A stretch of 59,580 nucleotides of DNA, filler included, from Sphacelaria rigidula (Eukaryota): assembly GCA_964200075.2 (NCBI GenBank). It is 9 parts of 9 records of this genome, joined end to end, with 100 filler letters (N's around TTAATTAATTAA, not from the genome) between each part and the next. Parts side by side here need not be neighbours in the genome. Positions count along the whole stretch, not along the records: positions 26,528 to 33,058 come from CAXNAA020019519.1; 8 more parts are not named here. One strand, 5' to 3'. The translations under genes and the position numbers were made by a program. Position 1 is the first letter of the stretch; each line of letters begins with the position of its first letter. Shown piece after piece: positions 2,818 through 43,847 of the stretch. Under the pieces are notes generated by a model. That model saw nothing but the letters and a program-made list of their open reading frames with translations. It ran no database searches and was not told where the DNA came from.

Positions 2818-4342
2818 CGACTGGCGATATTTGACGACGAACAGTGTATGGTCCACGCCATGGGATGATTAGCTTGGGGTTGGGGCCATCAGTGTCCGTG
2901 TAAGGACGGTGGATCAGAACTTGATCACCTGTGACAAATTTGGGAAATGATCATTTGTTGTTTGCGCTTGCTTGTTTGTCCGACCGTTCTTTGAGATTTC
3001 GGCGAGCCAATTCATATTCTAATTGCAATTTATTTACAGTTTCGCGCGTATAATCCAGGGGAGACTGGGGCGCGGATGTTGACGGCACACCAAGGATAAG
3101 ATCGATGGGAAGTGTGGCGGAACGGCCGAACATCAAAAAGTGTGGTGTTTCGTGAAGCGTGGATGAATAGGCTGTGTTATGTGCCAGTTGGACAAACGGC
3201 AACATATCTGCTCAGTTAGAGTACGCAATATCACTGTACATCGTCAACATTTTGTGCACTGTACTGTGGACTCGTTCAAGAACAGAGTTACCTTGGGGAC
3301 GATAAGGTGCGGTTCTGGTCTTCTTATATCCGAATACAGTTTGAAGTTCTCTGACGAGTTCGTTTTCAAACTCGGGTCCCTGATCACTGTGGAGGGTGTC
3401 TGGAGGGCCAAAGATGGAGAAGACACGTTCCACCATGTGACGTGCGACGGTTATAGCCTCTTTGTTGGAAATAGCAATGAGGACTACAAATCGTGTCAAA
3501 TGATCAATCACTGGCAAGATGTATCGATTTCCTCGGGAGCGAGGTTTATACTCAACGAGGTCGACAGCGACGCACTGAAATGTTCTTGTGATAGGACGGT
3601 GACCGACCGGTAATACCGGGGGCCGTGCTGAGGATTTGCGCCTCTGACGTGATTGGCAACAGTCAACGTGGTTTTTAACATCAGTGTGTGTTGTGGGCCA
3701 CCAGTACTTATCACGCACTCGATCGAAGGTACCTTTGAACGCTAGATGACCCCCAGAAGCGGGAAGGTCATGGCACGCTTCCATGACAAGCGGACGTAAC
3801 TTATCAGGTACCACTAATTGATCACGAAAATCGCTGCGTTTTCGCAAATGACCCGGTAGATAAGGGCGAAAGAGTAAATTCTCGTGGAGGAAAAAATAGC
3901 TCATCGTATGAGTGGTTTCTTTCGAAGGAAGGGGGGACGACTTGGGATTATTGAGATAGTCGATATATGGACCGAACTCTTCATGTTGCTGTTTCGCAAT
4001 TTGAACGGGATCTGCAACAGGGAAGATAGATACTGCGCTTGTGAACATGTCGCGGTCGCTGTCGACAGGAAGGATATCATCTAATTGCTGAGCAGATACT
4101 TCGAATTCTTGGGGGGACGGGCGATGATACGGTCGATCATCCCGCACGTTACGGCAGATGGCTGCTAATCTGGGTTGCGATTGAATTTCTTCACCGTTCG
4201 TGTCACCAAATAGGCGAGACAACGCATCTGGCACAACGTTTAATTTCCCGGGAACATGTTTCACCGTGAAATCGAAGCTCTGCAGTTGGATTGACCATCG
4301 AGTTAGCATGTTGCTGGTGTCTTGCATATTATATAAATGCAT
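2818..4342 (-). pseudogene. pol: Gypsy RNase H C-terminus and integrase (zinc-binding region, DDE core, GPY/F region), frameshifted
   Basis: CHDLPASGGHL, VAVDL, HSDQGPEF, VLERVHST, AHNTAYSSTLHETPHFLMFGR; PWRGPYTV near 2850. Confidence 0.9.
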
Positions 4343-4363
4343 GAGAGCTTGGTGATCTGTCCA

Positions 4364-21157: not shown

Positions 21158-22275
21158 CTTCAGCCTCAGGTCTTCCGCCGTGCGCTTGAGAGATCTCGCT
21201 CTTTCCAACAGGCGGGCACTTGGCGCACCATTGCTCAGTTGTAACCTTAGCCTTTATCCGTGCCGTCGCCATGGAGAATAAAATATCACCGTCCACGGGC
21301 GTGCAAGACGCGAAGAGAAAGTAGTGGGGTTTAGTTAGTCATCCCAGGAGGGGGGAAGGGTTGGGCGGGACGAGACTTCTGATCAATTATCGACACCCGG
21401 AGTGGTCGACGGGAGACACACAGTCGCAAATATTTGTCGCCGGAGTAAAGAGGGGGGAACCGGTATACTTATCAGAGTATCGTTCTATACACATCGGGCT
21501 GCCAGTGGACTACTGCAACAGACGGGCAAAGTGGCACGCAATTTCCTGGTTGGTCAACAACGTGAAAACCCATGGAACCTGATTGGTAGATACTCCTTGG
21601 TCGACGGCTGACGTAAGTTTTCGCGCGGAACTTACTCGCAGCGCTGCTGACAGTGCTCGCTCGACGAGCGGGGTTTGATTTCGATGCCGTACCTGGCTAA
21701 AGATTTCTTATCGGCGGCTGCTGCTGCTTCTAGCATGTCCCTGCGCTTCATTAGTTCCGCCGTAGTTCTCTTCCCCTCCTCACGCTCCTTGGACGCGGCG
21801 TCGGCTCGTTGTCTGGCCGCACGTGACTGACCAGAGAGACAAATCGTGCGGGCAAACTCAATTCATACACGATATCCCCCCTCTCGATGCCCGACTCTAT
21901 AATAATGCGCGGAATCGCGAAGAAAACAGAGACAAAACCGAGGGACGGCGGGACTCAACAACAAGCGAGAGAGTTCCGGCGAACAGGAGGAGGGTTTCGC
22001 CACTACGATGCCGCGGCATTCCACGTTTTATGCATAACCCGCGGCATCTTTTTTGTTGTACTTTTCTTGGCAATCACCAAGGTTTAGTTGATACGACGGT
22101 GCTAACTCACTGTATTAACTCTCTGTTCACGATAGAATTGTGCAGCAGTCGTTCAAGAGCAAGAATAATACATGTTTGAGCGCCCTGTTCGGGTACAGGC
22201 GCCCCCGTTCGAGGTTCACATACGCCTGGTACAATAGGCTCCCCCACCCGCGCCCGATCGCCGTCGCCAGCAAAC
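21158..22275 (-). CDS. Possible exons of a host helical/coiled-coil protein gene (best exon 21826-21693)
   Basis: tcag|SRAARQRADAASKEREEGKRTTAELMKRRDMLEAAAADKKSLA(R)|gtacgg joins in phase to LQLSNGAPSARLLERARSLKRTAEDLRLK|gtgaaa (~21246-21158). An upstream candidate exon reads MAVQQLSLL..RALKH. No family recognised. Confidence 0.4.
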
Positions 22276-25200
22276 TGAGCTGCTGCACAGCCATGGCTTA
22301 CCAGAAATATTCCAGAACCCCCCCCCCCCCTCCCCACCTGGTAGACCGAAAATATACATATCTTAGTCGCTTTTTTTACCTAGAATGTATTAGGACCTGT
22401 CGACAAATTTGACAACTTGGCAGTATATTTTGGTGGCTCCATCCATCGTGGCAAGATGCGTCGCCTTGCGGTCGTTCGATTGTGACGTATGACATTGCAT
22501 GACGGCATCTACGATAGGGTGGTACAGTAAAAAAATCGCCTGCTTGTTGTGTGCATGCAGACCAGGCCGAAAAATGTTTGTAGTTCAGGTGTTGTGTGTG
22601 GGCAATATAGTTGATGTAGCTGAGCAGAACAGTGACAAGTGCGATACACAGTACATGAGACCTCGGCCCATCAAGTCACTTCCAGCAACACCAAAACGCC
22701 AGTACAAAAAATACCAAGACAAAAACTATGCCTTGTTTCTGTTATCTCGGATGGACTTCGAGCCTAAACCACCCACGCAGGCTGGCTACGAAAAGTACAC
22801 TTGAGATGAGCCCGATACCCCGAGCAACATAGCCTCCATTGCCTTCAAATTTCAATATTACGATCACGTAAGCTCACTCGGCAAGTCTAAAATCAAGTGA
22901 ATTGGTTCGCATATACTCAGATCAAGTAACTTGCCTCAGTTTTTGTAATCAAGAGACGTGATTGACCTGTACTCAGATCAACTATTCATCTTGCTTCTTC
23001 ACTCCAAGATGAAGCAACACGAGATTTTACAGATTGGGGATGGATTTTTTATTGAGGATGAGAACCCGGAGAATTAAAATCTTCGTATCCACACCAAATC
23101 TTCGAAATATAGTTCCACTCCTTCATCTACTGGTAGCTATTGACAACTACTGCACGCCATGCAAATTTGGATCCTGATAATCCACATGTTGGGGTCCAAC
23201 CTGAAGAAACAACTTTGGGGAATTTGGATCAAAGTGCGACAATCATTCAAAATCAATTAATCAATCAAGATGATTCGATCAGATTGCCGAAATTCGCAAA
23301 ATTGGTTTCTCACCTAGAGGAAAGTGCCGTATTGGGCCCACCTTAAGCCACCCCTGACGCCAATGGCTGGTTTGTCGGCAGTGTTTCGACTTGAACCGAT
23401 ATTTTGGTATCCAACGATAGCTTAGACTACTCTCCAACATCCCGAAAAAAAAAGAAGAGTGATATGGAGAGGCGGTAGCGGCTCTGGGGTTCATGGTTCC
23501 TCCGCGCAGAAAAGTCTGAAAGCACGTCTGCTGTCCTATCAAGCACATTTTTGCGTATTATGCGAGTACCTGCGTTCTGGAACGTCTCAGAACCCAATAC
23601 TTGGTATGCACATCATGTGTGTACTTGACATCACTATCGGAAGGAAAAAAAAGCACACTCATGCCCATATCCGGGGACAAAAAACAAACACCCCCGGGGT
23701 TCAGGACCGTCGATTTCGGGGCAATTTTTCGTGTATTTTTACTTCATGCGTGCCCCGTGCACGGCAGGCGACGCAAAACCAACAGTTTGATGCATTGATT
23801 GACTGCTGTGTGAACGTATGAAGGCTCCCGAAAACAAATCATGGGTTTTGGTGCCGGTTTGCTCACTTTATGAGGGTTCAAACATGGGCACACGCTCCTG
23901 ATTTCGCCCGTGCCACACTTGGAAGCAATATAAAAAATTGTTGTCGGGTCAAAACTGCTGTAGGACCGACTGCTATACCCTTTTCGCATCCGCTCCTCAG
24001 GTGGCGAGTGCTGTACAGAGCTAAAACAGCCTTCTCAGCCGCCGTAGGTGTAATGTGCTTGCTCCCGTCAGTGCTTCGGGCCGCGTGGGCCACGCTCAAG
24101 TCTACATGTCGTGTCATCTTTTGCTTCGTCCTTAGCACGATCGACACCAACCCAACATCAGCCTGCACGGCCAGTCCCAGTGACTGTGACTGCCGCAGCT
24201 CGTGAGTGACGAGGTCGATCGGCACGCTGAAGAGCGCAAACGAAAGCTGGAGATGTAGACTCACCGTTGCGAACGAAAAAAAGAGGAGTTCCATGTAGTG
24301 AGCGTCATTTTGTGACCGTTTTTCCGAAGTGTGCCATGTCTTGAAGATTTTGTATGGATACGAAGATGTTAATTCTCCGGCTTCTCGTCCTCAACAAAAA
24401 ATCCATTCTCAATTTGTTTAACCCCGTAAGCAACTTGTCTCAGCTAGCCTAAAATCAAGTGACGCGGTTCACCTGTACACAGTTCAAGTAAATTGCGTCC
24501 CAATCTACGAAAATCAAGTAATCGTTTTGAGTATAGAAAATAGTGTGTAGGTAGTTTTATACAGGGTTTGGTATCCGCCTCCCTCCCCTGTGCTCCGTCT
24601 CGAAAGGGATGCGTGGTCATTGGTCAAACGACTAAGGCAAGCAACCAATGAGTACGACCCCCTCCCCCCCCCTGTCCTCCCTAGAGCGCCCGAAACGAAT
24701 GAATGGGGTGTGGGTCCAGGGTTTTTTCCTTGGATAAAATTGGCACAGCAGGAGTCTGCAGCAGTACATATTTTTTCGGATTTGGGATTGCAATTAGTAT
24801 ACGATAAAGAGTGCAGTCTTAAGTCATCACCTTGGCACGGCTCTCATCCGCGGCGGCCTTAAGTTCCTCGTTCTCGTTGGACAGTCGCTGACACTGCAGA
24901 CGAGCCTCCCGTAATTCCCTAACGGATGCAACGAAAACGTCGTGAAACGCCGAGATGGTAATTCTGGACGATCATGTGCGACATGTACTGCTATAATCAT
25001 TATCGTGGTATCCATTTCCGCACACATGGTGAAGACCGTGATGCAACCCAAGCAAAAAACATAGTATCGCGGGCGAAGATAAGGATCAAGCTCATAGCCA
25101 TTAACGATGCACCATCATTACTGGGGGGTGTGCGGAGCTGCACATAAACACCCAATCGTCGTCTAGAAGAGAGGAAACATTATCATCGTGAACGTCCCAG

Positions 25201-26991
25201 AAAACAACGGACCGCGTTTGACGTTTACAACTGTTTCGTCTTTTTTTCCTGTGTACAACACTGGGGTGCAGGCCGACGCCTGGGCGTGAAAGTACGGTAC
25301 CGATGCTATTTGCGGGCAAAAGGGGGGCAGAAATTCAAACTATCTCCGCGAAATGCCTCGTCAACGGAGAGCGTATTGATGCACAAGCGCTACTGTTTGC
25401 GCGGCCCCTCCAGTATGCACAAAAAAACGGGATCTAAGCAGGCTTCGCCTGCCTGCACGTCTTCGACGAGGCTAAAGAGCGAAATCTTAGTCCCGATGTA
25501 CCTGCGATACGAGGCATCCGCCCCACCCTGAACGGTGCTCTCGTGCAGCTTTTCTCTCATGAAAAACGAAGGCACACTGTCGTCAATCAGACAATTTCAG
25601 CTTGTGAAGCAAAATCCTCCAGGGAGGCCTCTCCGCACTTCATTGAGCCCACATCTCCTCGCTGCTTTGGGTCTAGCTATCTCACTCGGCCACATTCGAC
25701 CAATATCGCTTGATGATTCCCGTTTGCCGTCGAGACCCGGTGTTGCGCGCTGCCCCCCCCCCCCCCACACGAGATATTTTCTACGATAGCCCCCCGCAAA
25801 AAAGTGCCTGTTTTGGTGGGGCAAAGTATTCACGGTAATCGAAATAAAAGAAGCCGAGAACAACGAGCAGCTGGGAATTCCCACGCTTGGGGTCGTTCTC
25901 GCCAATGTCCTCCATATGAGGCGCTTCATGCAGCCTGAACCCAAAGATCAGGCGCTGTACGACCATTTTTCTCGTGACACTTGTGGGCTGGTTGTGGGGG
26001 TGTACTCATGATCATGCATGCCATAGTCATCAGACCATTGACCTCGCATCCCTACAAAGCCAGGACAAGAGCACACCAGGTTTTCGCCGGACCAGGCTCG
26101 CACTCAATCACCAAGCGCGAAGCGCCGTGGTGTTATCGGCGAGTCGCATGAAGGGGGGGCTGCATCTTGCTAAGATTGTTCTGCCCGAAGCCTACTAATT
26201 ATTTATCTTGCATTTGGATGACAGTCTCCGATAAGTTGCTTTATTTTCTGGTATCGTCAATCCCTGAGACAGCCACAGCTTATACACTGCCTCATGGGCG
26301 CCTCACCATTTAAACACTACTACGTGGAGCGAGCATCCGACACTTTCTACGATAGCCCCCCCCCCAAACCAGCTAAAAGTGTCGCGAAAAAAATGGCCAT
26401 GAAGCGCCTGATGTTCGGGTTCAGGCTNNNNNNNNNNNNNNNNNNNNNNNNNNNNNNNNNNNNNNNNNNNNTTAATTAATTAANNNNNNNNNNNNNNNNN
26501 NNNNNNNNNNNNNNNNNNNNNNNNNNNGTCGGCGGTTGATGGCGTGGGTCTCAAATGCAACGACAAGTGGTTGGTGGTAGAGCACTCTGGTTCAGCTTAT
26601 AATCCATTGTTATAGGTGAACCTAGGGAACGTATTACCACCGTAAAAACAAAAAACACACAGCTCGTGCCCTAGCTGCTCGTCAGGTGTGCGTGACCTTG
26701 CATTGATCCTATCAGAATTGAATGAGAAACGATGATTTGCGTGCGTGAGACGCGCGCGAACCGGTAATAATTACGTGCGTTGCGCAGTGCCACAGGTCAT
26801 ACTTTGAATAAAACGCCGCTGCTGCTCATCAGCTGAGCACGTTATTTATCGTCCTCGTATGAATCTGTTCAGAATCCAATAAGAAACGACCCGAAAAAAT
26901 GATACCGATTCAATTCTTGAAAGGGTTCGAAACGTCGAAAAGGGAAATGCATCACACGAAATTCGTCGTAACGTCATAACGCCCTGACACC

Positions 26992-28608
26992 ATGCAGAAC
27001 ACAGTGCGGAAGACAATTTCTGTGATACCCTCCCCAGACACCTTGGAGAAAGCAAAGAACACTAACGACCACCTGAAGCACGTACGTCTTTCCAATACGC
27101 TGGTCAGCATGGTGTCCATGGATGAACATACTAAGTTTAGGGCAGCTGTGAGATCCAGTTGCGAGGCCGTAAAGACCGGTATTAATATCACAGCGTACGA
27201 CCTGGCACTGCTGATGATATGTACTCCCTATTACATTGTTGACCATGGCACACTGAGATCTGTACCACGGGGAACCTTCGTTACGTTGTGGTCAAGGATG
27301 GACACTATTGCTAGCACCTATCCGACGTCCGATGGGTTCATGATGGGCAGGTGCTGCAAAGACTACAACATCGTCACTACATGCCACTCGAATGTGAAGT
27401 CACCCAGCCTCGCAAATGATAGCCAACACGTGGTCAAGGAGAGGAGAATACTGAACCTCAACTACGGCGATACCATGGAACATGACTTAGGTGGGACATT
27501 GTTAGCCAAGGGTCCGTATCGCGTTATATCTGGGAGAGGTGTGTATCCATCTATACAACACGCTATATTGGACCAGTACAACAGATATAGAGCTCTAACG
27601 GTACACATGTCAAACGGCGAATGCTGGAAGTGTGGCAACATGTGTGTGAGAGCATATGCTACAGGGGGTGGTAGTACCATTAGTGTGTGTTTGGCATGTG
27701 GTGTGTCGGACCTGCTTCACACACAGAATTCGTATCACATAGTTATAGGCAGACATAAATTGTGTATATCCGGAGAACACCTACTACGCCCAGACAGATA
27801 TGTAAGACAGGTGTTATCAACTAGCGCATCCACATTACAGGCACTAAGGAGGGTAGAGAGGCTATACTGTGGGAAGGAGTTAGATTGGATCACCCCAGCA
27901 AAGAAGATGGGTGCAGTTAGGTATACTAGCGATGGGTGTGCATGCATGAAGTCTGGTTTGCTATACACATGCCCTGTATTACACATCGCATCGATGATAC
28001 TGGGTGGTTGCTTCGTTACAGTGTTGTGCCCTGTACCGTCCGTAGCTAGCTCCACTGTAAATATACCAGAAACAGTCAGGAAGATAATATCATTAGGAGG
28101 GGCATGGAAGAGTGTGACCAACACTAACACTAACCCGCTATCTGCAGCCCATGTGGACGATAAGGTGGTTGGCAGAGACGCTGAAACGGCGGTATCAATT
28201 AACATGCCCGATGGTGTAGTGGAGTGTAGTACCATTGGAACCACAACATGCATGTCGAAGATATGTGCTATGGTGGTGGGGTGTAATAGAGTGTACGGTA
28301 TGTCAATGGAATCGTTGGCCATCTTCTCAGAAATCCTAGTGCCATTGTGTGATAAGAACATTTGGCCACTGGTGTTAACGGAGGCCATTAAGGTAACTAT
28401 GAAGCATGTTAGCGGGTGTTCCATTGTCTTCACATATACGGGTACCATATCATACACTGGCAGCCCCACGAAAATACCAGTGGCTATATCGGGTTTCATG
28501 GGAGTTTTGAACACCGTATTCACAGCAAAGGGTTCAAAGATGATCCTGCTAGCCATGAAGAGGGTGGTCAAACCGGTGTGGACTGTATCAGTGAGGGACA
28601 TAGTATAA
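26992..28608 (+). CDS. 538-aa hypothetical virus-like protein with a CxxC...CxxC Zn ribbon; may extend to 28804 through a frameshift
   Basis: Long ATG ORF; ECWKCGNMCVRAYATGGGSTISVCLACG; the late segment SIVFTYTGTISYTGS loosely resembles TBP-fold strands. Confidence 0.75.
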   Translation: MQNTVRKTISVIPSPDTLEKAKNTNDHLKHVRLSNTLVSMVSMDEHTKFRAAVRSSCEAVKTGINITAYDLALLMICTPYYIVDHGTLRSVPRGTFVTLWSRMDTIASTYPTSDGFMMGRCCKDYNIVTTCHSNVKSPSLANDSQHVVKERRILNLNYGDTMEHDLGGTLLAKGPYRVISGRGVYPSIQHAILDQYNRYRALTVHMSNGECWKCGNMCVRAYATGGGSTISVCLACGVSDLLHTQNSYHIVIGRHKLCISGEHLLRPDRYVRQVLSTSASTLQALRRVERLYCGKELDWITPAKKMGAVRYTSDGCACMKSGLLYTCPVLHIASMILGGCFVTVLCPVPSVASSTVNIPETVRKIISLGGAWKSVTNTNTNPLSAAHVDDKVVGRDAETAVSINMPDGVVECSTIGTTTCMSKICAMVVGCNRVYGMSMESLAIFSEILVPLCDKNIWPLVLTEAIKVTMKHVSGCSIVFTYTGTISYTGSPTKIPVAISGFMGVLNTVFTAKGSKMILLAMKRVVKPVWTVSVRDIV

Positions 28609-28983
28609 TAAGAGCAAGGACATATTAAATCTTAATGTAGTGGTGCAGAAGTACGTCATTGGGCCCGACGGAACTAAGCAAATGTTGGAACCGAGTGTGA
28701 ATTTGACCAACACATCCAGAACGGGAGACACTGGTACGGAGGGTACCAACGACCTCAGCATAACAGAGAGACAGATGATAGACCGCCTCATGGGCAAATG
28801 TTAAACCGAGTGCGATGTACACAGGCTACACGTGTTCGTGATGGGAGTTTTAGATGTCTGTACATACCGGTGACCGTGATACCCATATACATAGGTAACA
28901 CTAAAACTCCATTGTGGTTCCACATAACACACATAATCAGATGCAACATATACATGTAGGATGCACTGCGTGGGATGTCGCAC

Positions 28984-29868
28984 CTACAACACTTTACCAC
29001 CCTTCAGTGACGGCGGGTCCACCTGAGTGTGTTTCAGGTTGAAGTGGCAACCAATTACCTTGCTAGATATAGTCCCAGTGCTGGTGTTCGGTATCTCATC
29101 CAACACCGTGTCAGAGCTTACCCTCATTGTGGCACCCATGCTCAGAAATACGGTTGCTCTGAGTGATTTCTTTCCGATGTACCGGATGCCAGAGAGTGTC
29201 AGGTCCTCCATACTCCTGTCCTCCACCCCATCCGGGTATAGTGGTTGCCCATCGTCACCTATGCTGTTATTGGTCGTTGTTTCAACCTTCAGCGCCTTGT
29301 ACGCCATTCCAGACCTCACACCCGTGGTGATCCAGACATAGTTGTTGTGGTGCACGGGTGCCTTCCAATCAACTTTGTATTTGCACGCTTTGGATATATG
29401 GCTGTGCACATATCTGATGCTGCCTAGGGGGATCCCCACAGTTAAGTACTGGGTCATGTATCTACCTTTACCACGGCCCCCACGTTCACCTACATCTACC
29501 ATGCAGTCATCGAAGGCAATAGTATCCGTCTTTCCTATGCCATAGTCATAGATCAGGCTAGCCCAATATGTCACAACATCCGCGTCCGCTGGAAAAGCAT
29601 TATTGTCGCCCTCCCTCTTCTTCATCTCCGCGAACGACTCCAGGTGTGCGCTATTGATATATGGCTGGCCCCCAGGTGCTATGTGGTAATCATAGTGCAA
29701 ATCTGCGAACACTTTATCCACAGCATGGGTGTCGGGGAGACCTAGCGCAGAAGCATACTGGGCCAGTTCAGGGAACATACGTTGGTAGTTGATCACATAA
29801 CTGTTTGACACAACCAGGTCTTCCATCCGCTGGATCAACCCCTCATCGTTCAGAAGCTGTTCTGCCAT
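28984..29868 (-). CDS. 294-aa hypothetical protein, intact, function unknown
   Basis: ATG in good context (GCAACATGG), globular composition, TATAAG about 20 nt upstream, same strand as the helicase. Confidence 0.8.
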   Translation of the reverse strand: MAEQLLNDEGLIQRMEDLVVSNSYVINYQRMFPELAQYASALGLPDTHAVDKVFADLHYDYHIAPGGQPYINSAHLESFAEMKKREGDNNAFPADADVVTYWASLIYDYGIGKTDTIAFDDCMVDVGERGGRGKGRYMTQYLTVGIPLGSIRYVHSHISKACKYKVDWKAPVHHNNYVWITTGVRSGMAYKALKVETTTNNSIGDDGQPLYPDGVEDRSMEDLTLSGIRYIGKKSLRATVFLSMGATMRVSSDTVLDEIPNTSTGTISSKVIGCHFNLKHTQVDPPSLKGGKVL

Positions 29869-29983
29869 GTTGCTCTATGTGCTGCTTATACGTTGACCCT
29901 GACAAACACACTCACGTCAACACACCTCTTGTTAGGCGCACGGTCACTGTACCACCCTGATGACGGAGTTTTAGGATATGCAA

Positions 29984-31460
29984 TCACTTGGTACCTGCAA
30001 TTAGGTTGATGGTTTCGTCGTGTACCCTAGTGTCCCGTTTGAACATCATATTCCTAACCCTCCGTACCTCCTCCTTGATCTTGTTCTCCCGTATCTTCTT
30101 ATAGGCGGGAAACACATACCATGTAAGGCTCTCAATGTCATCTATGGTCTCTGCAATGGGGAAGCTATACCCCTGTGTGGATCGGACGTTCTTCAGTCCA
30201 TATTGAAACTCATTTTCCAGACATGGGTATCTGAGTGCAGTGGAGAACACCTGAACAATGGACTTAACTAGGTGTTCGTGTGTGCACCTCACCCCACGTG
30301 CTATGATATCTAGCGACTCTACCTCATCCATCATACCACACTTCTCTACCAACCTCATGCCAGGTGTGAAAGATGACTCCCTACCTACCATCAGGGTCGA
30401 TAGCAGACTCCGTGTTGTGCCGTATGGTGATGTGTGCGTTACCCCGCAATATATGGCAGCTGCTACGATGTTCCCCTGCTCCTCCTCTGTCAACCCCCTC
30501 ATTATGATCCCTGTGTTCTCGAACTGACCCACAGCGTTCAACACCATCATCCGCTTATTGTATTCCACCTTAACCCATGACTGGGATGGATATGGTACTG
30601 GCATCCGGTTGCAGGTATATTCGACACTACACCTCAACATCTGTGGGGTACAGCCCCTCCCAACCACCGAGTCCCCACCAGTAAGTATCTTAAGGTTGGA
30701 TGTTGACAGGCCATTCCCATTGTCATGTTTAACATCTGTTGCCAGTGCTAACCTATTTGAACTCAATATCATCACCTCCTCCTCACCTACAGCAGCGTCA
30801 CTGGTGATGACATTGGAGTTGATGCTGCAGCAGGTTCCATTCATCACCTCAGATATCTGCCTCAGTAACGTACTCTTCCCTGCATTGCTAGGTCCCGTAA
30901 TTGCCAACACCTGCGATCTAGATTTGGGATCTACTAGCACATTGCCTAACATCTACAGTAATGCCGCTGAGTCGTACCCCATCACATCTGTCACCCTACT
31001 CACACCGGACATTGAGTGACAGTCTGGTCCGATAACATGTGACACCGTTGTGTTGGACAATGGCGATATACACAGTGAGGACATGACATCCGATTTACCA
31101 TCCAACAGCTTAGCCCTTAGTAAGCCTTACTACAGGTTGGTCGTGTGCATAGCCGGCACTAGCACCTGCGACACAGTTAACGGTATATCTATTGCCTGCC
31201 ATGCATATACTGATGGGTAGTGTGACAGGTGGAAGTGGTGTCATACGTAGCATGTCCCTGATGGATGGCGATGACACATGTACATTGACACTAGCTGCCG
31301 CGCCAACCTCCCTAGTTAAGAACGACATACCAGCTATGCTGTCTACAAGGACCCACCCCATACACTCATACCCGACCCAGCCGTATATATCAGTGCCAAC
31401 CCTCACCACATGTCCTCGGGCAAGCAATTCTGTACAGACTCTAGCGGGGTTGACCAACAT
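29984..31460 (-). pseudogene. D5-like superfamily 3 helicase (D5_N-like region plus ATPase), ~490 aa when repaired; frameshift ~31115-31128, TAG at 30953-30955
   Basis: Walker A GPSNAGKST, motif B-like RLALATD, LKILTGGDSV, motif C VEYTCN. The frame is open upstream of the TAG (LRAKLLDGKS..SAALL*MLGN) and meets the 116-aa ORF 31110-31460. Confidence 0.85.
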
Positions 31461-32970
31461 GTCAATAGCAAGTGTGAGAGCTACAGTAGATGGGTGTGTC
31501 AGTGTGTGCTATTACGATGGTACCATACTGAGAAATAAGCTGTCCAAACCCACATGTGACTCAGAAACCCTTGGACGCGCTGTTCACAAGGTGGAGTCAT
31601 CTCGCGACGGAGAGGTACATAGGATGACGTTTGGGACCACTCGTATACGGACTCTGAGGTTGGCATCAACAATGGGGTTAACCATTGAATTGAACTTACC
31701 TGGGACCAGGTCGAACGTACCACCCCCGTCATATGGGTGTTATATGGCAAACGACCTGGAGGGTGCATTCGACAAGAAGGGCATGACCTGCCAGAGGGGG
31801 GAGTTGCTAGCTGGTACTCTGTTGTGCAGCTGTGGATTTCAATACAGTGCAACGTGTAGGCCAGTTCAACATCCCAACACATTCTACTTCAGCAGCTCAG
31901 CCAGGATGGTCATAGCGATGCTGAGTAAGATCACAGACCACAAACCCCTCTTCCTCATGGGACACAACTGCTACAGATATGACAACCGTGTGATGATGAC
32001 ACATCTGCTAAGCGGTGAAATTGAGCACCCGGGTAGAACCAAATACGGCGATCTGTTCATGGACATATTATCCAGGGGTACGTTTGGGCACGAATTGAAG
32101 TGTATGATCACCGTTGATGGCGTTGACAATGTTGACACGTTGGAGTGGTACAGACTCAGCAACTACAACCTTCTGAAGTCCTACACCCTAGCTAGCATCG
32201 CTGAGCACGAGGGCATAGAGTCTAAGATGTCTGGCGTTAGCTTCAGCCCACACATGACAGATGCAGAGTCCAAACACGTGTTGAGCTACAACATTCACGA
32301 TTGCAGGATACTACTGAGGCTATGGGAGAAGCGGGGGATAGGTAATACCATACTCTCGATATGCAGAGAAGCAGGTGCAGCATTTCCAGACGTTGCAATG
32401 TATAAGACCGGAGCCATAGGGGCATCAGCAATAGTGAGGTGTTGCTATGTAAAGCAAAGAGCGGCATATATGTGGAGGGACTACTATGGGGTGTTGGATT
32501 CCATTAAGGGTGGGTACGTTAGTTATATTTCCAGGACCATCTATATCCAGCAATGTGGTGTCACTGAATTTCTCGTCACTGTATCCGACCATAACACAGC
32601 GTATCAACATCTCACCGGAGTCTATAAGGATCACCGGATTCAAGTTGGTGGATGGCGCACATGTAGAGGATGGCAGCTGTACGTTTGACTGGAGGGTGGA
32701 TGATAAGGGTGTAACAACAGTATACAGTGTAGTCAACGTCGTGGATGGGAATAAAACGTGCACGGGTGTGGAGTTTTCGAGGGCTGACGGTGCCATCGCA
32801 GCAACGGTATGCAGGGAGATGATGATGGTACGGGCTGCTGCTGTATCTGCTGGTGACAGCTACAAGGCGTTGTCGTCAAAGATTATTGGGAATAGCGTGT
32901 ACGGAATGTTCCCGGCTTTGTAGGAATGCCAGGTCTATGGTCTTATGACTATGGCATGCATGATCATGAG
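31459..32970 (+). pseudogene. polB: Family B DNA polymerase (exonuclease, motifs A and B), frameshifted and truncated before motif C
   Basis: ExoI ANDLEG, ExoII GHNCYRYD, SYTLASIA, ExoIII YNIHDC, KGGYV. After a frameshift near 32545: motif A SLNFSSLYPTI..NISPES and motif B KIIGNSVYG. Confidence 0.9.
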
Positions 32971-33158
32971 TACACCCCCCCCCCCCCCCCCCCCCCCCCC
33001 TTTTACCCCTAACCCCCCCGGGGGGTTTTTTTCGTATCTTATTTTTTTTTTATAAAAANNNNNNNNNNNNNNNNNNNNNNNNNNNNNNNNNNNNNNNNNN
33101 NNTTAATTAATTAANNNNNNNNNNNNNNNNNNNNNNNNNNNNNNNNNNNNNNNNNNNN

Positions 33159-33705
33159 TGGAGTCTGCGTACAACGAACATCATGTCGACTGTGGAACGG
33201 CCAGGTCGGAAACCGCATTGCGCTTCTGGGAGGATTCCCTTCCACTCGCAGTAGGCACCGAGGCGAGTCGCAACTACCTTGAGCACCAGCTTGCTGTGGG
33301 GGACCCGAGAGAAATACCGCGGTAATTGCCGCATTCGTACGGGTCCTGTTTCTTGAAGAGCACTTTGATGATAGTGTCTTTCCACTCTTGCGGTACAACT
33401 TCCTGATGCCACACGGTGAGCAAGATGTCGTGGAGGTACTTCAGGATGGCAGACTCTTCGGTGCGGCCGAGCTTTTATAGTTCGCCACAGATACCGTGCG
33501 CCAGTTTGCCCACCGCTTGCTTCACTTCTGCATCGAGAGCTCCGCCGCGAGCGGTGTGTGCTCTGGCAGCTGTTCGATGAGATCGATGACAGAGTGATCG
33601 ATTGTAGGTGAGTTTGCGTTCAGCAGTGTGTCAAACCATTCCTTCCATCGTTGCAGGATAGCTTGCTTGTTCCGCAACAGCTCCCCAGTCGCGCTTCGGA
33701 TGTAG
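33159..33705 (-). mobile_element. LINE (RTE-like) ORF2 fragment, N-terminal RT region, decayed
   Basis: [24 protein letters not shown]; upstream [18 protein letters not shown] segment; cut by the contig end. Confidence 0.8.
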
Positions 33706-39689: not shown

Positions 39690-42558
39690 NNNNNNNNNNN
39701 NNNNNNNNNNNNNNNNNNNNNNNNNNNNNNNNNTTAATTAATTAANNNNNNNNNNNNNNNNNNNNNNNNNNNNNNNNNNNNNNNNNNNNTTTGGATGAGA
39801 TAAGGGGCTCCTAACAATTCTAACCTCAGAAATTATTTCTGTACCCCTACCGTAGCATCACTCTGATCAACGCGCCAAGCCTCTCGCAATCGGGCCAAGA
39901 TCGCATTCTTGATATGCGTGGCGGTATCACTCACACACACACGGGGCAACCCCAAAGCTTTGCACCAGTTCAGCAAAGACGCAGCAGTCGATTCAGCGGT
40001 ACACATGGCTACTGGTTCCAGAGCCACAAAGTTGTTCAAATCATATGATTACCAAAATGTATCGAAACCCAGCATCCTCCGACAAACCTTGGGAAGCTAG
40101 CGGGCCACTCTCGCCCACGTACAAGAAGTCAAAATGAACGACCTCATTCGGCGTGGTCCCATGGACCGTTTCACCGAGCGAGCGGGGAACAACATTGCCC
40201 GCCCTCGAGTCAGCACAGTGAAGACACTGGCGGAAAAATTCGCGCACATGAATTTCTATCACCTGCCAGACACAAAACTCTTGCAAGCGCACGAGTGTCG
40301 CAGCCACACCACGATGCCCGGCGTCGCGCATGTGCGCGCAAATCATCAGATGTACCTGCAACTGCTTGTCAGAACTCGGAATCCACAAAACGTTTCGGCC
40401 ACGCACATGCATACGAAAAAGACCTTCATAAGAAGATAGCAGTCCCAACGTCCGACTCGAAAGATTGCATATCCGCATGTTCGGCCCCAAGGTCTTTTCG
40501 TTGCGCTTGGCGGACAATAGATTTGGACGGCATCGAGTCATCAGGTTCACCCGGACCATACACAGCCACAGCGCGCGCAGGCAAAGCTGGAATATTGACC
40601 CAACGCGAAAGCAAGTCACCACAAGCGTTAAGTTCACCCGAAATATGACAAATCGTGTACCGATACTGGCCTAATACACCTTTCCACCCCTCCAACCGTT
40701 GTGCCAACGCCCTCGAGACAGACGTCACGCATGCCTCCGAGTTAAAAATGTACGCTAGATTGCGGTGATCCGTGAAAATGTGCACGCAATTTCACAATTG
40801 ATGCTCGAGACAACGAAAAGTACTCACGATAGCAAAACCTTCATTTTCAATGGTTGCCCAACGCATCTGTGAACCCTTGTAATGACCACTAAGAAAAGTC
40901 AGCGATTCATGGGTCATGTCTTCAACCGGCAACCGTTGTTGCATTTCTGCACCAGGCACCTGCGTTACAAAACTACCCCAATGACACTTGGATGCATCCG
41001 GAAACATCAACATCTGGTAACCGGGGCAGAGATGGAACAGCGTCACGGCATGAGCCACCAGACCCTTCGCTTCCGCCCATGCCTGCAGCCTGTCCTCCGT
41101 CCACGATGCAGGCGGAATAGCGCAGGTTTCGGCCACCCGCTTCGTGCGCCTTGCAGACCCCACCATGAGCTCTTCTAGGAAAACGCGCAAGGGCGCCACG
41201 AAGCATCGCGCGCTCAACAGGTATATCGCGTCGGATTTCTGATTGGGCATGACACCCGGCGACTTCTCCACCTGATCACTGACGGCTCCGTAATCTCTGA
41301 CAAAACGGAAAGAGACCTTCTTCGGCACCACCATCGCTGGACTGGACCACACCGCCTGTAGATTCTTGAACACCAACCCAAACGCCGCAAGAGCTCCCAT
41401 GCAAGAAGCTAACCGACTGGACTTTACAGGATCATACCTCCCCGGTTTTGCCTTCACCGCGGCCGCCCCTGGCTTCAGTGTAACCCTCATGGATTCCACG
41501 CGCGCCGGGGGATCACCCACCAGCGCACGACGAAACGCGTTCACGTGGCGATACAATATGCCACGCAAGCGCTCCGATTTTGAGACGTTGAGGCCATTTG
41601 TCACGCTTTCCTCCAGCGCAGCCATTCACGCGGACTCCTCTTCTGCCGGCTCCATAAACATATCGGGGCCACGCTCCACTAAGCGTTCCACCGCCTCATC
41701 ACGCTCCTCGGACACCTGCCCCCCCGCCTCCTGGAGAGCACCAACCGATAAGCTCACTCTGCGACTGGCTAAAAAAGCAGGCGTGTCGACACTCGAACCG
41801 AGCGATGGCATTTGCGTTTTTAAGGACTCTAACAGCCGATCATACGGATCGACTCCGAGTCCCCGAAGCGTCGGTAAGCCCAACAGAACGACACCATCCG
41901 TCCCCGGCATGATCGCAAGCGATATCGGGGGTAATTTCGCTGGCCCCCAGGTAGTCCTGAACGCCAACTGTAGGGGAATCGAAAGCTCCGTGACATTTAC
42001 ACGTTGCCCCGATGCAGTGATGGCCTGCTGCGCCCCGAGCGAGAAGAGAATGCGGATTTGCTCACCAGGGAGTATATGCTTCAGCATCTTCACAATCAGC
42101 ACCGACACGCTCGTGAAATGGGCGCCTGAATCCAACACAGCGTTGACCGATATGGCTCCCGCGCCCGTTGATTTGGGAGATATAACTTTGCAGGAATATA
42201 TATTTCTTGATCGTCGACCGGCACCTGCTTCGCCGACTGATTGGTCGTGAATCCCACTTGGCGCCACGGCTGCGCGTGCGGCGCAAGCATAGACGCCACC
42301 GTTGGGGTAACGACGGGTACGAAGCCCTGCTCGCAGAACCAAACTGCAGCGATACTCCGGCCGACGCAGCAGCGGATCCAAATTTCAGGTGGAATCCGGC
42401 CGGCTCAGCAGCAGGCGTCTCGCCTTCCTCTGCTGCTGGCGGCGCCGGCACCGAGCCCGACACTTGAGTGGTCGGTCCCACCTGCACCGCCCGTTGCGGA
42501 GCAACAGCCCCTGCGGCTGAGCCGGACCCAGAACCGGACCCCTGCTGACGCCGCTGCC

Positions 42559-42599
<41 letters not shown>

Positions 42600-42625
42600 G
42601 ACTGGGACTGGGACTCGGAACTCGA

Positions 42626-43549
42626 TTATACACCTCCACCGCTGGAGGATCCGCCTGCGCCACCACCCCGATGACTTTTTCCTCCTTTGTGATTGCGAGG
42701 GCGCGCGGCACTTGTCTGCCCAGACTCCCCCTCGGAAGGCGTTGGGCACTTGCGTGCGTAGTGGCCTACCTGGCCACACTTAAAGCAAGTGATATTGGCG
42801 GCGGCACTGCCTGCGGATTTTGATCCACGGTTACGCGAGCTCGAAGACTGTGGCGACGAAGTGGATGATTTCCCGAATACTTCAATCTTCCGCCATGCCT
42901 GAGCCTCAGCCACGACGGTATCCATAACTAAGTACGGGTCTGACTTCCTATTGGTTCCGTGCTGTAATTGCACAAGCACGGCCTGTTTGAATTCCGCCGG
43001 TGCCAGACCCTCCACCATCGCTTTCGTGATCACCGCAGCGGGCCCTGGACGGAATTTCCCATCGGAGGAACGATAAACCATCCCGACGTTGGGGTTTTCC
43101 GAAAAACATGTCTCCAACTTTCCCATGATTGGCTCTACCCTCTCACGCATGGTCTTCCCCTTGTGGTTCATGGCGACAGCCTTCGCCACGGCCGCGGACG
43201 CCTGGGTTAGCTCTACCTCAGCGCCCGCCGCATGCCCTGCATGATTCTTGATCGCTGCAGCCAATTGCAGCGGCGTTATTGTGTTCTTCTCGTGAAATCT
43301 TGTCGCAAAAACGCGTTGGAGGGGGGTAGGCACGAGTTGCGCCATGGAAACCACCTGATGCCTTACCGCACCCCCCGCATTCGTATGCTCCACCCGCTTC
43401 TCGTATTCCACAAATTTCGTATACAACGAACGAGAAGCACACTCAGAATACAAATTTCCGTAACTGGGAGGCCGCAACTCTTCTCTCAGAACAACTGGGG
43501 TTACGGTCGTCTCCGCTGGCTCTTCGGCCGGTACCTCTGTAGTCGACAT
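42626..43549 (-). CDS. gag: Gag with CCHC zinc knuckle (copy 2)
   Basis: 307-aa ORF with CX2CX4HX4C, followed by a CAG-repeat low-complexity linker. Confidence 0.85.
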   Translation of the reverse strand: MSTTEVPAEEPAETTVTPVVLREELRPPSYGNLYSECASRSLYTKFVEYEKRVEHTNAGGAVRHQVVSMAQLVPTPLQRVFATRFHEKNTITPLQLAAAIKNHAGHAAGAEVELTQASAAVAKAVAMNHKGKTMRERVEPIMGKLETCFSENPNVGMVYRSSDGKFRPGPAAVITKAMVEGLAPAEFKQAVLVQLQHGTNRKSDPYLVMDTVVAEAQAWRKIEVFGKSSTSSPQSSSSRNRGSKSAGSAAANITCFKCGQVGHYARKCPTPSEGESGQTSAARPRNHKGGKSHRGGGAGGSSSGGGV

Positions 43550-43847
43550 TTCCGAGCGGACCTATTCGAAGGCTTCTGAACCTTCTCGAACTCCACAGTT
43601 CACACCTGTCTTCGTCGCCGTACCACACAGCCGTGGGATCCTATAACCTGCTGCTGCACACAGCTCCAGCCAGTCTCCAGTCTGGATCAATCACGGGCCA
43701 GCCGCCTTTGCAGCTACCTCAGCTTGAAACCTCCTCACGCGTCCGTGAAGCAATATGCCCGAAGCTGTCCAGACTCCTCTCTACTGAAACATTTCCAGCA
43801 GTCACTAACGATAGCACAACTAGCACGACTAGCATTAATATCGATGT

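Follow-up and report, generated by a model that had tools for sequence, protein, structure and literature searches.

A small part of the Sphacelaria rigidula assembly, confined to positions 26528-33058 of the window, is probably a truncated, recently inactivated and chromosomally embedded copy of a small dsDNA element. It is best read as an endogenous fragment of a self-replicating, self-transcribing element of 15-24 kb, which belongs to an apparently undescribed family. The window, i.e., the whole stretch of DNA analysed (59,580 nucleotides), comprises nine pieces of ~6.53 kb each, separated by spacers N44-TTAATTAATTAA-N44. In the piece of interest, four genes without introns lie closely packed: PolB (+), the SF3 helicase gene (-), ORF B (-) and ORF A (+), all recovered at the places given in an earlier note on this DNA (Table 1). 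That note also regarded the module as unlike all other contigs, in agreement with the host-like nature of the other eight pieces: Ty3/gypsy domains occur in ORFs of four, and CpG o/e is 0.92-1.07 in all eight versus 0.66 in piece 26528-33058. This low value is no proof of chromosomal decay, since many free relatives of the element are also low (0.19-0.68).

Table 1. Features of the element-derived piece and its flanks (window coordinates).
Feature	Position	Strand	Remarks
Left flank	26528..26640	.	very high-copy host repeat; from summed depth and loose ends
ORF A upstream region	26641..26991	.	degenerate repeat units
ORF A	26992..28608	+	538 aa, intact; tentatively homologous to a 535-aa protein of related elements
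CCAAGG	27041..27046	-	leftward-pointing, out of ORF A
ORF B	28984..29868	-	294 aa, intact; occupies the place where relatives have a gene of 260-383 aa, immediately downstream of their helicase
Helicase, C-terminal part	29984..30952	-	322 aa, stop codon included; SF3 ATPase core and C-terminal domain
In-frame TAG in helicase gene	30953..30955	-	Trp or Phe there in full-length relatives (TxxW..GN)
Helicase, middle part	30956..31126	-	57 codons in the core's frame; ends at frameshift ~31113-31126
Helicase, N-terminal (collar-like) part	31113..31460	-	other frame, from ATG 31460; blastp clustering with relatives' helicases
ACAAGG, candidate promoter element	31345..31350	+	within helicase gene, 114 nt upstream of PolB ATG
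Helicase/PolB start codons	31458..31461	.	back-to-back starts, 2-base overlap in CATG
PolB, N-terminal and 3'-5' exonuclease domains	31459..32517	+	up to KGGY
CCAAGG, candidate promoter element	31569..31574	-	within PolB gene, 114 nt upstream of helicase ATG
GTTA-GTTA tandem duplication	32518..32525	+	frameshift directly before motif A
PolB, palm region	32522..~32908	+	shifted frame, motif A then motif B; Pfam DNA_pol_B 1.1e-4
Right flank	32908..33058	.	dispersed host repeat, then poly-C and low-complexity sequence; cuts PolB before motif C

The polymerase matches the PHROG DNA polymerase family (2.8e-10) and has 69 library matches at E<=1e-3, four of them at E<=1e-30, with Pfam exo1 and polB scores (21.0 and 21.6) just below the cut-off of 23. 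The clear exonuclease, A and B motifs described earlier align as expected, namely ExoI NDLEG (at 31750), ExoII GHNCYRYDN, ExoIII YNIHDC, motif A SLNFSSLYPT, in which Asn replaces the catalytic Asp (codon 32567-32569), and motif B KIIGNSVYG. Motif C is absent from the aligned sequence, as a host repeat interrupts the gene beyond motif B. Homology to the relative P0003 begins at the start (MSIASV), and 98 residues precede the ExoI Asp, confirming the short N-terminus of ~97 aa previously proposed. The label "mini-PolB" holds insofar as intact relatives are compact (700-950 aa), but the small size seen here is in part due to the truncation at ~32908. Matches of the family profile to archaeal PolB (5e-67) and Pol delta (1e-54) indicate an enzyme of the RNA/DNA-primed (primer-extending) kind, in line with the resemblance to RNA-primed enzymes suggested by the note.

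The helicase gene runs from 31460 to 29987 (-) and would encode ~490 aa, but is broken by a stop codon and a frameshift, so that the 322-aa ORF first taken for the helicase corresponds to its C-terminal two thirds only. Its identity as an SF3 helicase is borne out by matches to PHROG primase-helicase families (1.6e-7) and by Walker A (GPSNAGKST), the Walker B Asp, the motif C Asn and the Arg finger, which align with nine relatives. With relatives as queries, tblastn reads across the stop and HSPs extend to 31120. The middle part has no row of its own in the helicase family alignment; its SSLCISP resembles the family consensus SxCxxP. The N-terminal part aligns with the N-terminal domain of relatives' helicases and corresponds, in the family model (pLDDT 73.7), to D5 residues from about 321. 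This model aligns to SaPI5 344-696 (Z 21) and to vaccinia D5 residues 321-756 only (Z 18), and thus has no AEP primase domain, as the note had proposed. The nearest folds include poxvirus D5/E5 and ASFV PrimPol, with 9-16% identity to viral proteins among the BFVD matches listed.

The window copy is dead. In addition to the TAG and the frameshift in the helicase, PolB carries the GTTA duplication and the motif A Asp-to-Asn change, and has lost motif C. Short-read contigs match these lesions exactly (X1, X3), the TAG being covered by an exact contig in both runs and the GTTA duplication by contig 32427-32867 with 0 differences in X1; the runs that best contain the stretch may be the very sample behind the assembly. 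The broken copy was found in three samples of one study, and a second study contains a near-identical stretch (19 differences in 3238 letters). The short reads also revealed a second copy, ~12-14% divergent (67/483, 34/315 and 58/437 letters), at a depth equal to or higher than that of the window copy (238-294 versus 60-79 in X1), with second-to-window ratios of ~3.9 (X1), 1.9 (X3), 1.1 (X4) and 1.6 (X5). This copy lacks both frameshifting insertions, being four letters shorter at 32518 and one letter shorter near 31118, where the window copy has an extra base, and is unbroken at these sites. Of the 37 coding differences listed between the two copies, 22 fall on third codon positions (p 0.001), implying that they diverged while functional.

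Both ends of the module enter high-copy sequences. On the left, summed contig depth in X1 reaches 181,984 in bin 26528-26745, versus ~79 over the unique body, with many loose ends at 26573-26607. The adjacent region 26641-26991 (depth ~1869 in X1) shows many skip/go-back joints between variant units and includes two 37-nt units (26696-26732 and 26853-26889), 157 nt apart and 73% alike; the region may derive from the end of the element or from a neighbouring gene that has been lost. On the right, where bin depth is ~1e6, positions 32910-32979 share 93% identity with 26065-25996 in a different window piece, and the consensus of loose ends at 32910 agrees with what lies upstream of that repeat copy. 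No read or contig was shown across either junction in the short-read data because unitigs break at repeats, and chromosomal integration, as suggested by the assembly, is the likely configuration.

PolB family members were detected in marine metagenomes as well as in assemblies of a chytrid (Globomyces) and of Ascosphaera. Among 30 PolB-match clusters looked up, five had any name and none a virus name; literature and database searches returned no published description or name for this family. Three profile or sequence scans of IMG/VR found no family member, the two weak matches both being giant-virus MAGs, and P0004 had no match among 72,556 plasmid records. In the PolB tree, the window sequence groups with P0002, P0003 and P0004 (SH-aLRT 98), and the 45-row family including it is split from an outgroup of four PolBs, of which one belongs to a giant-virus MAG and the other three are larger and come from metagenomes (SH-aLRT 99). 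The tree contains no named phaeovirus, herpesvirus or mirusvirus PolB; among the sequences compared, it supports the separate lineage suspected by the note. Contig sizes recur among relatives (22222-22304 in six of seven members of one cluster; 18622 and 18634; 15233 and 15234; 16452 for L005), with three relatives on 27-32 kb contigs, and free members appear to have genomes of ~15-24 kb, as judged from contig sizes rather than termini; the partial loci of relatives showed no terminal repeats. Syntenic copies, which the note had suggested looking for, do occur: 11 of 22 metagenome loci carry a helicase homologue, which in eight of these 11 lies directly head to head with PolB. Rpb1-like genes were found in seven loci and Rpb2-like genes in four, the subunits being compact, about half size (580-655 and 799-833 aa), together with a TFIIS ribbon protein and a UDG-like protein, for which 6/6 PDB matches are UDGs (E 0.012-0.16). 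None of the loci yielded a recognisable capsid, packaging or integrase gene, so that the element may be either a virus or plasmid-like.

Part of this evidence could also fit a sequence that is not integrated: a free virus or plasmid-like element resident in or on the alga would have been assembled together with it, as a defective genome or a mis-joined contig. The foreign composition, the related copy at higher depth with a run-dependent ratio (as for a variable episome load), the stand-alone relatives of recurring size and the unbridged junctions all point that way. This reading is nevertheless improbable given that both ends enter high-copy repeats, one recurring in another window piece, that two essential genes bear four inactivating lesions, and that one study has the broken copy in three samples and another study a nearly identical one. 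It is likewise doubtful that the contig comes from a different eukaryote present in the sample (a fungus, chytrid or protist living as an epiphyte or parasite) in which the element is endogenous or resident. The named relatives come from chytrid and Ascosphaera assemblies and one run containing the stretch is labelled 'algae metagenome'; against this, although not decisively, stand the recurrence of the right-flank repeat in another window piece, the depth of the flank repeats (1e5-1e6), which are the most abundant sequences among the contigs compared, as for the dominant genome, and the presence of the stretch in four runs that share a single organism label. A brown-alga and phaeovirus setting lacks firm support: the runs with the stretch bear no labels other than a coded organism and 'algae metagenome'.

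The region could also derive from a giant endogenous viral element of the conventional kind (phaeovirus or other Nucleocytoviricota) with merely divergent genes, but this seems very unlikely. PolB, a D5-type helicase and RNA polymerase subunits do form the informational core of Nucleocytoviricota, and both the helicase folds and the weak IMG/VR matches point to this group. However, the family is split from the outgroup PolBs, its helicase lacks the primase half and shows low identity to the BFVD proteins listed, relatives occupy 15-24 kb contigs of recurring size, the IMG/VR scans found no member, and no NCLDV capsid, A32 or VLTF3 domain occurs among 83 ORFs of nine loci.

Among known systems, the kinds of genes are shared with the Nucleocytoviricota core, especially that of poxviruses (E9 PolB, D5, D4 UDG, Rpo147/Rpo132 and a TFIIS-like subunit): an RNA/DNA-primed PolB, a D5-fold SF3 helicase with a collar domain, two large RNA polymerase subunits of eukaryote/archaeal type, a TFIIS ribbon and a UDG-like protein. 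In poxviruses, D4 serves as a processivity factor. In contrast, the family has apparent genomes of ~15-24 kb and not >100 kb, a PolB of 700-950 aa, half-size RNA polymerase subunits, no AEP primase domain and no recognised capsid or packaging genes. As in phaeovirus and giant endogenous elements, viral replication genes occur in an algal assembly in multiple, partly decayed copies, but the gene set is compact and without a primase domain, and the family does not lie near the giant-virus PolBs compared. Polintons/Mavericks and polinton-like viruses (15-40 kb) multiply in protist genomes, some with SF3 helicases; their protein-primed PolB, rve integrase and capsid genes were not seen in the element or its family. 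Identity with a phaeovirus, a polinton or a yeast killer plasmid was rejected based on the tree, the primer-extending PolB, the SF3 helicase and the gene set, no phaeovirus reference being among the sequences compared.

In the pGKL-type killer/helper plasmids of fungi, the RNA polymerase is a fused subunit and the helicase belongs to SF2. These plasmids may offer the best analogy for the family's way of life. According to the portion of the source available, they are small, linear, cytoplasmic dsDNA molecules with their own DNA polymerase and helicase, a giant-virus-derived RNA polymerase and no virus particle, but with a protein-primed PolB, a capping enzyme and a different helicase (PMC13348850), whereas the family has a primer-extending PolB and an SF3 helicase. 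Fungal cytoplasmic plasmids also leave copies in nuclear genomes, as described in the accessible part of PMC11848437. The Mriyaviricetes, 35-45 kb relatives of giant viruses mined from metagenomes, similarly combine small genomes with SF3 helicases; in the sections available, they are described as encoding an HUH endonuclease and neither a DNA polymerase nor RNA polymerase subunits (PMC11253617), while the family has both polymerases.

Based on these comparisons, the window region would be the replication block of a lineage with free genomes of ~15-24 kb. Intact relatives encode a D5-type SF3 hexameric helicase, with collar and ATPase domains but no primase domain, and a compact proofreading PolB; the two genes would be read in opposite directions from a common start region with almost no spacer, the short promoter element of each gene lying inside the other. 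The element would bring its own two large RNA polymerase subunits, TFIIS-ribbon protein and UDG-like protein, and so would transcribe and copy itself with little host help; DNA synthesis may be primed by a transcript of the RNA polymerase, by a primase of the host or by a protein not yet recognised. In the window, ACAAGG and CCAAGG have a mirror placement relative to the two start codons and are candidate promoter elements by analogy with sister-clade loci, where 16 of the 22 CCAAGG sites are followed 15-93 nt downstream by a start on the same strand. The CCAAGG inside ORF A may be a promoter left behind by a divergent neighbour that has been lost, as judged from L003, in which the CCAAGG for a divergent Rpb2-like neighbour falls within the ORF A-like gene, at its 5' end.

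The two ORFs called "orphan" by the note remain so with respect to Pfam and Atlas, where neither had a match (nor did ORF A in PDB, its AF2 model being unusable at pLDDT 30), but have faint positional counterparts in relatives (weak E, 0.002-0.01). ORF B weakly matches the gene of corresponding position in L004, L005 and L007 (hhalign E 0.003) and L010:3801-4625 (E 0.007). ORF A weakly matches L003:6091-7695/L005:3-1514 (E 0.011; collinear over 25-529 versus 32-518) and the L010:3004-3669 family (E 0.0017). That both ORFs are still open is unexpected for old junk and weighs against the embedded-copy reading; they would be lineage-specific accessory genes. For ORF A, a 99% identical protein (P0086) and a C-terminal relative with 58% identity (P0097) were also identified.

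The nine pieces of the window, each of 6530-6532 bases, are separated by N44-TTAATTAATTAA-N44 spacers, and pieces lying side by side are non-contiguous in the genome. The element lies entirely within the fifth piece (26528-33058), where four long ORFs with short spacers and no signs of introns were found at the places claimed in the earlier note, which had described them as four packed, intronless genes. CpG o/e is 0.66 in the fifth piece (0.49-0.62 within its ORFs) versus 0.92-1.07 in all eight other pieces; since low CpG is common to many free relatives, it signals a foreign sequence rather than a decayed one. No further family gene was found elsewhere in the window, and Rfam gave zero matches in the window. 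ORFs of four other pieces encode RT, RNase H, integrase (H2C2) and zinc-knuckle domains of the Ty3/gypsy type. Ty3/gypsy-type ORFs occur at 3212-5766, 40792-43561 and 55993-59215, several of them frame-broken, and a short LINE-like RT fragment (33107-33412) runs into a spacer.

Genes of the element in the window, and UDG-like genes and example palindromes in related metagenome loci (L-numbers, recovered with the PolB profile)
Feature	Location	Strand	Size and basis
ORF A	26992-28608	+	538 aa, long ORF
ORF B	28984-29868	-	294 aa, long ORF
SF3 ATPase (helicase core)	29984-30952	-	long ORF
Family B polymerase (PolB)	from 31459	+	long ORF
UDG-like protein	L003:4511-5830		PDB profile
UDG-like protein	L006:11687-13291		PDB profile
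UDG-like protein	L014:14915-16552		PDB profile
UDG-like protein	L017:2001-3671		PDB profile
GCAAC-N3-6-GTTGC palindrome	L010:6695-6707		exact match
GCAAC-N3-6-GTTGC palindrome	L014:9655-9667		exact match
GCAAC-N3-6-GTTGC palindrome	L017:8724-8736		exact match

The PolB matches PHROG DNA-polymerase families (2.8e-10), and its Pfam scores are slightly under the curated cut-offs (exo1 21.0, cut-off 23). A HMMER search of 1.84 billion representatives revealed 69 matches at E ≤ 1e-3, 32 of them at E ≤ 1e-10 and 4 at E ≤ 1e-30, and the family profile, based on a 30-sequence alignment, displays every PolB motif. The window protein aligns with the family at ExoI (NDLEG, with Asn at the Tyr position preceding the Asp), ExoII (GHNCYRYDN) and ExoIII (YNIHDC), and thus exhibits the motifs of a 3'-5' exonuclease. 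Motif B (KxxxNSxYG) is present as KIIGNSVYG. Motif A reads SLNFSSLYPT, with an Asn (32567-32569) replacing the catalytic Asp of DxxSLYPS, a residue present in the aligned full-length relatives and nearly invariant across the family. Motif C, which is YGDTDS in the relatives, is missing because the PolB ends at a repeat junction near 32908. The nearest profile matches of the family were archaeal PolB (5e-67), then Pol delta (1e-54), Pol alpha, E. coli Pol II and herpes UL30 (1e-45), and no protein-primed polymerase occurred among the 60 profile matches listed. By its sequence, the PolB family is of the primer-extending (RNA- or DNA-primed) type.

The helicase matches PHROG primase-helicase families (1.6e-7), and its Walker A, Walker B, motif C Asn and Arg finger align with nine relatives, as expected of an SF3 ATPase. 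Its profile matches the SaPI5 primase-helicase at 4.8e-9, a Pfam DUF5906 match falls under its cut-off, and a word-indexed search with the 322-aa ORF, covering near lengths only, gave zero matches. The fold was modelled with AlphaFold on a full-length relative, not on the window protein (11-row alignment, pLDDT 73.7, pTM 0.72). Residues 1-105 of this model are disordered, and residues 105-499 align to vaccinia D5, MPXV E5 and SaPI5, which places a D5N-like collar in the modelled relative. The best-scored matches were to residues 344-696 of the SaPI5 primase-helicase (Z 21.0, rmsd 5.4, 322 aligned) and residues 321-756 of vaccinia D5 (Z 18.0, rmsd 5.5, 310 aligned), and the model also matched residues 323-781 of MPXV E5 and 540-836 of ASFV PrimPol. 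Among predicted viral structures, the best 50 matches were D5-type helicase-primases of phages, giant viruses and virophages, with 9-16% identity. In the window, the segment 31113-31460 aligns with the N-terminal, collar-like domain of the relatives' helicases. These relatives have 444-544 aa, with only a disordered, variable leader of at most 105 residues before the collar and no AEP primase domain. On this model, the helicase would be the collar and SF3 half of D5, without room for an AEP primase. Every PolB and SF3 motif named in the earlier note is present in the alignments with relatives; the note had also seen no primase domain in the helicase, estimated about 97 aa before ExoI and placed the PolB closer to RNA-primed than to protein-primed enzymes, and the short helicase leaders, a count of 98 residues ahead of the ExoI Asp (from the MSIASV start) and the family profile agree with it on these points.

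The best PolB relatives, found in Logan/ENA assemblies, are the library proteins P0001 (66% identity over 140 aa), P0002 (39%) and P0003 (38%), and P0004 shares 32% identity over its full 741 aa; further relatives include dozens of 700-740 aa and some of 780-950 aa. Five of the 30 clusters looked up (of 69) were named, three by generic JGI labels, one by a hypothetical protein of Globomyces sp. JEL0801 and one by a set of proteins from Ascosphaera aggregata and A. pollenicola, and none of the 30 carried a virus name. Several relatives lie on contigs of recurring size: contigs of 22222-22304 bases carry six of the seven P0021 cluster members, P0023 occurs on two of 18622 and 18634 bases and P0027 on two of 15233 and 15234, with others on contigs of 21689, 23863, 21188 and 24060 bases. 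These recurring sizes point to complete genomes of about 15-24 kb. Terminal inverted repeats are, like a cytoplasmic location, a trait of the linear plasmids of fungi; no terminal or long inverted repeats were found in four partial relative loci. The Globomyces protein (P0061, 1489 aa, on the 24,060-base contig) has a PolB joined to an Rpb2-like C-terminal part and is probably a merge of two adjacent element genes by a eukaryotic gene caller; the A. pollenicola protein P0107 (1380 aa, on a contig of 21,188 bases) is similar in length.

A quick IQ-TREE run was performed on 49 PolBs, comprising the window protein (X at the break), 32 of the 69 matches, P0107 and 15 ORFs of the metagenome loci; the other 37 matches, mostly fragments, were left out. 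The window protein grouped with P0002 and P0003 (98), then with P0004 (98), and this group was sister to a clade that includes PolBs of 900 aa, the fungal proteins forming a separate clade (100). All 45 family rows were set apart (SH-aLRT 99, on a starred branch) from four larger outgroup PolBs, namely one from a giant-virus MAG and three from metagenomes, a sample that holds no named phaeovirus, mirusvirus or herpesvirus sequences. IMG/VR gave zero matches with the single PolB sequence, two weak giant-virus MAG loci with the PolB profile, and 17 weak loci with the Rpb1-like profile, none of which has a family PolB or helicase; none of these scans revealed a member of the family. Searches with P0004 gave zero matches in prokaryote genomes (a scan that reaches close relatives only) and in plasmid records, and only T4-like PolBs of 22-27% identity in phage records.

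A metagenome scan with the PolB profile revealed 22 loci. A helicase homologue occurs in 11 of them, head to head with the PolB in eight and separated from it by 1-3 genes in three. An Rpb1-like protein (580-655 aa) was found in seven loci and an Rpb2-like protein (799-833 aa) in four; by profile, Pol II and archaeal subunits are their closest matches, with lower scores for the vaccinia and ASFV Rpb2 homologues. Other products of these loci are a protein of 535-721 aa with an N-terminal TFIIS ribbon and, in some loci, a PIF1 helicase, an RNase H and a NADAR protein. A further protein of 440-557 aa has six PDB profile matches, all to uracil-DNA glycosylases (E 0.012-0.16) and all in its N-terminal third. 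It has GExPY at the GQDPY site of UDGs, followed by a long variable tail. This UDG-like product may be a catalytically altered polymerase accessory protein. Combined, L003 and L005 point to a set of nine genes on a contig of 16.5 kb. Capsid, packaging ATPase and integrase domains were not recognised in the 83 ORFs of nine related loci, nor were Pfam domains for the double jelly-roll capsid, A32 or VLTF3 in these or in the window ORFs, although divergent versions could escape such a search.

The two clades of loci differ in the short words that lie upstream of their genes. In the sister clade (L003, L004, L005, L007), 16 of the 22 CCAAGG sites occur 15-93 nt upstream of a same-strand start, a placement with an expectation of 2.7% (p 6e-21), and the hexamer resembles a promoter word of this clade. 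In the window, where the helicase and PolB ATGs overlap in CATG (31458-31461), each of the two start codons is preceded at 114 nt by a mirror-image word: CCAAGG for the helicase, located within the PolB gene, and ACAAGG for the PolB, located within the helicase gene. A GCAAC-N3-6-GTTGC palindrome is found in the other clade, where it precedes many genes by a few tens of bases and also sits between divergent pairs, with exact matches in L010 (9), L014 (4), L017 (4) and L006 (1) and zero in the fifth piece of the window; it resembles a bidirectional promoter or operator specific to this clade. For a eukaryotic element, a sigma-70 scan of the start region carries no meaning. The intergenic regions of the AT-rich relatives L010 and L014 contain recurrent TTTTTAAAA-like words close to where genes end and begin; these may be termination or late-promoter signals.

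In an intact element, helicase and PolB would be transcribed in opposite directions, and clade-specific promoter words beside element-encoded RNA polymerase subunits would fit self-transcription. Replication would involve a hexameric D5-type helicase and a proofreading PolB, perhaps with the UDG-like protein as polymerase partner, a role played by the poxvirus UDG. Candidate sources of the primer are a transcript of the RNA polymerase, a host primase or an unrecognised protein. On a joint reading, which we regard as a serious possibility falling slightly short of probable, these sequences represent a deep, undescribed lineage of 15-24 kb eukaryotic DNA replicons whose gene set comprises a primer-extending PolB of compact size, a D5 helicase devoid of a primase, Rpb1- and Rpb2-like RNA polymerase subunits of half size and a UDG-like factor, hosted by algae, chytrids, ascomycetes and marine protists and maybe primed by their own RNA polymerase. 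Such replicons would then rank as the smallest giant-virus relatives known so far, or else as a second kind of cytoplasmic plasmid, evolved independently, that transcribes itself and has no capsid.

The informational core of Nucleocytoviricota has the same kinds of genes, from which the family differs in its size, its missing primase, its half-size RNA polymerase subunits and in having no recognisable capsid genes. Mriyaviruses, small relatives of giant viruses, are described in PMC11253617 as having an HUH endonuclease and no DNA or RNA polymerases; in contrast, the family encodes both polymerases, which places it outside Mriyaviricetes. Fungal cytoplasmic linear plasmids are the closest in lifestyle analogy, but the family PolB is not protein-primed, whereas killer plasmids have, according to PMC13348850, a protein-primed polymerase, which works with a terminal protein, and other housekeeping genes. 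Polinton/Maverick elements and PLVs are marked by an rve integrase, capsid genes and a protein-primed PolB; this PolB is likewise unlike that of the family, and rve, which occurs in the window only in other pieces, is absent from the fifth. No published description of such elements was found in the open full-text literature. An unsequenced dsDNA virus of Rhizidiomyces, of about 25 kb, may be a relative. If the joint reading holds, the family bridges the gap between giant viruses and tiny plasmid-like replicons, packing replication and transcription machinery of the pox/NCLDV kind into a genome roughly one tenth the size of that of any virus known with such machinery. It would then be relevant to the question of whether giant viruses arose by growth from small ancestors or gave rise to small elements by reduction. 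The pairing of a primer-dependent polymerase with a D5 helicase deprived of its primase is a puzzle in itself, and the family is a source of very compact polymerases for study.

The links of ORF A and ORF B to family genes are tentative and come from weak profile matches, those of ORF A agreeing with one another. A word-indexed search with ORF A returned only a 99% identical copy in another contig, to which a profile search added one C-terminal fragment of 58% identity; this copy and this relative argue that ORF A is a conserved coding sequence. It matches a 535-aa protein of L003/L005 (E 0.011, weak, collinear almost end to end) and a 208-222 aa protein lying two genes from the helicase in L010, L014 and L017 (E 0.0017, weak); the latter two families match one another (E 0.003), and a LLMxxCPxYxxxH...FVxxWS stretch is common to all three. 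ORF B weakly matches the gene after the helicase in L004/L005/L007 (E 0.003) and in L010 (E 0.007). PDB profile searches with the ORF A family, the ORF B-like gene and a syntenic 535-637 aa gene of L004/L005/L007 gave chance-level matches only, ESM Atlas gave no usable match for ORF A or ORF B, IMG/VR gave zero matches with the single ORF A sequence, and an AF2 model of ORF A (pLDDT 30) was unusable. An orthology of ORF A with the syntenic gene of L004/L005/L007 was dropped, as hhalign shows no similarity. The ORF A stretch SIVFTYTGTISYTGSP (28420-28470, residues ~477-493) may resemble a TATA-binding-protein repeat, a likeness without tool support; it is retained in the ORF A relative P0097 and partly in L003. 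An antisense open frame of 288-298 codons (27735-28631, minus strand) lies inside ORF A and was taken as a by-product of codon usage, since the plus frame is the one conserved in the relatives P0086 and P0097.

The window copy is a fossil, incapable of a role in replication or transcription. Its helicase ORF starts 20 residues ahead of Walker A, right after an in-frame TAG (30953-30955) at an alignment position where full-length relatives have Trp or Phe; 57 further codons lie upstream of it in the same frame, which shifts near 31113-31126, and beyond the shift a 116-codon stretch from the ATG at 31460 clusters by blastp with the relatives' helicases. The PolB frame runs to KGGY at 32517, followed by a GTTA-GTTA tandem duplication (32518-32525) and then another frame, and homology ends after motif B, near 32908. 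Just beyond, 32910-32979 shares 93% identity with 26065-25996 of the fourth piece, and contigs entering at 32910 from elsewhere have as consensus the sequence preceding the fourth-piece copy; the PolB was thus interrupted by a dispersed repeat of the host. Degenerate repeat units upstream of ORF A exhibit about 25-fold depth and many variant joints. Summed contig depth is 1.8e5 in the first bin (26528-26745), about 1e6 in the last and about 79 over the body. No contig bridges the junction at either end, as expected of unitigs at repeats, so integration rests on the assembly.

The stretch is present in five sequencing runs of two studies, four under one organism label and one as 'algae metagenome', with no RNA dataset listed among them. 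In runs X1 and X3, the TAG, the 31118 site and the duplication are each spanned by contigs that match exactly, so these lesions are not assembly errors; both runs may be the window's own source. A second variant spans about 29800-32900 and differs at 67 of 483, 34 of 315 and 58 of 437 letters. In X1 this variant reaches a depth of 238-294, versus 60-79 for the exact copy, with ratios of about 1.9 in X3, 1.1 in X4 and 1.6 in X5; no variant of at least 85% likeness over ORF A and ORF B was found in the contigs of four runs. The differences are chiefly transitions (282 versus 78 places in X1), and 22 of the 37 coding differences, among the 40 differences listed with 396 more beyond them, fall at third codon positions (binomial p 0.001), which argues that selection was still acting when the two variants diverged. 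They arrived separately and are not copies duplicated after inactivation, and algae carry several diverged copies of such elements. The second variant lacks four letters at 32518 and one at 31118 and so is unshifted at these two places; at least one copy is unbroken where the window copy is broken, and an active form may therefore exist. P0002, on a 6433-base Logan contig and without the ExoI region, has a C-terminus that resembles the window's out-of-frame reading past KGGY and appears to have changed frame no more than a few codons from that site, which may reflect an independent hit at a fragile site or a shared history.
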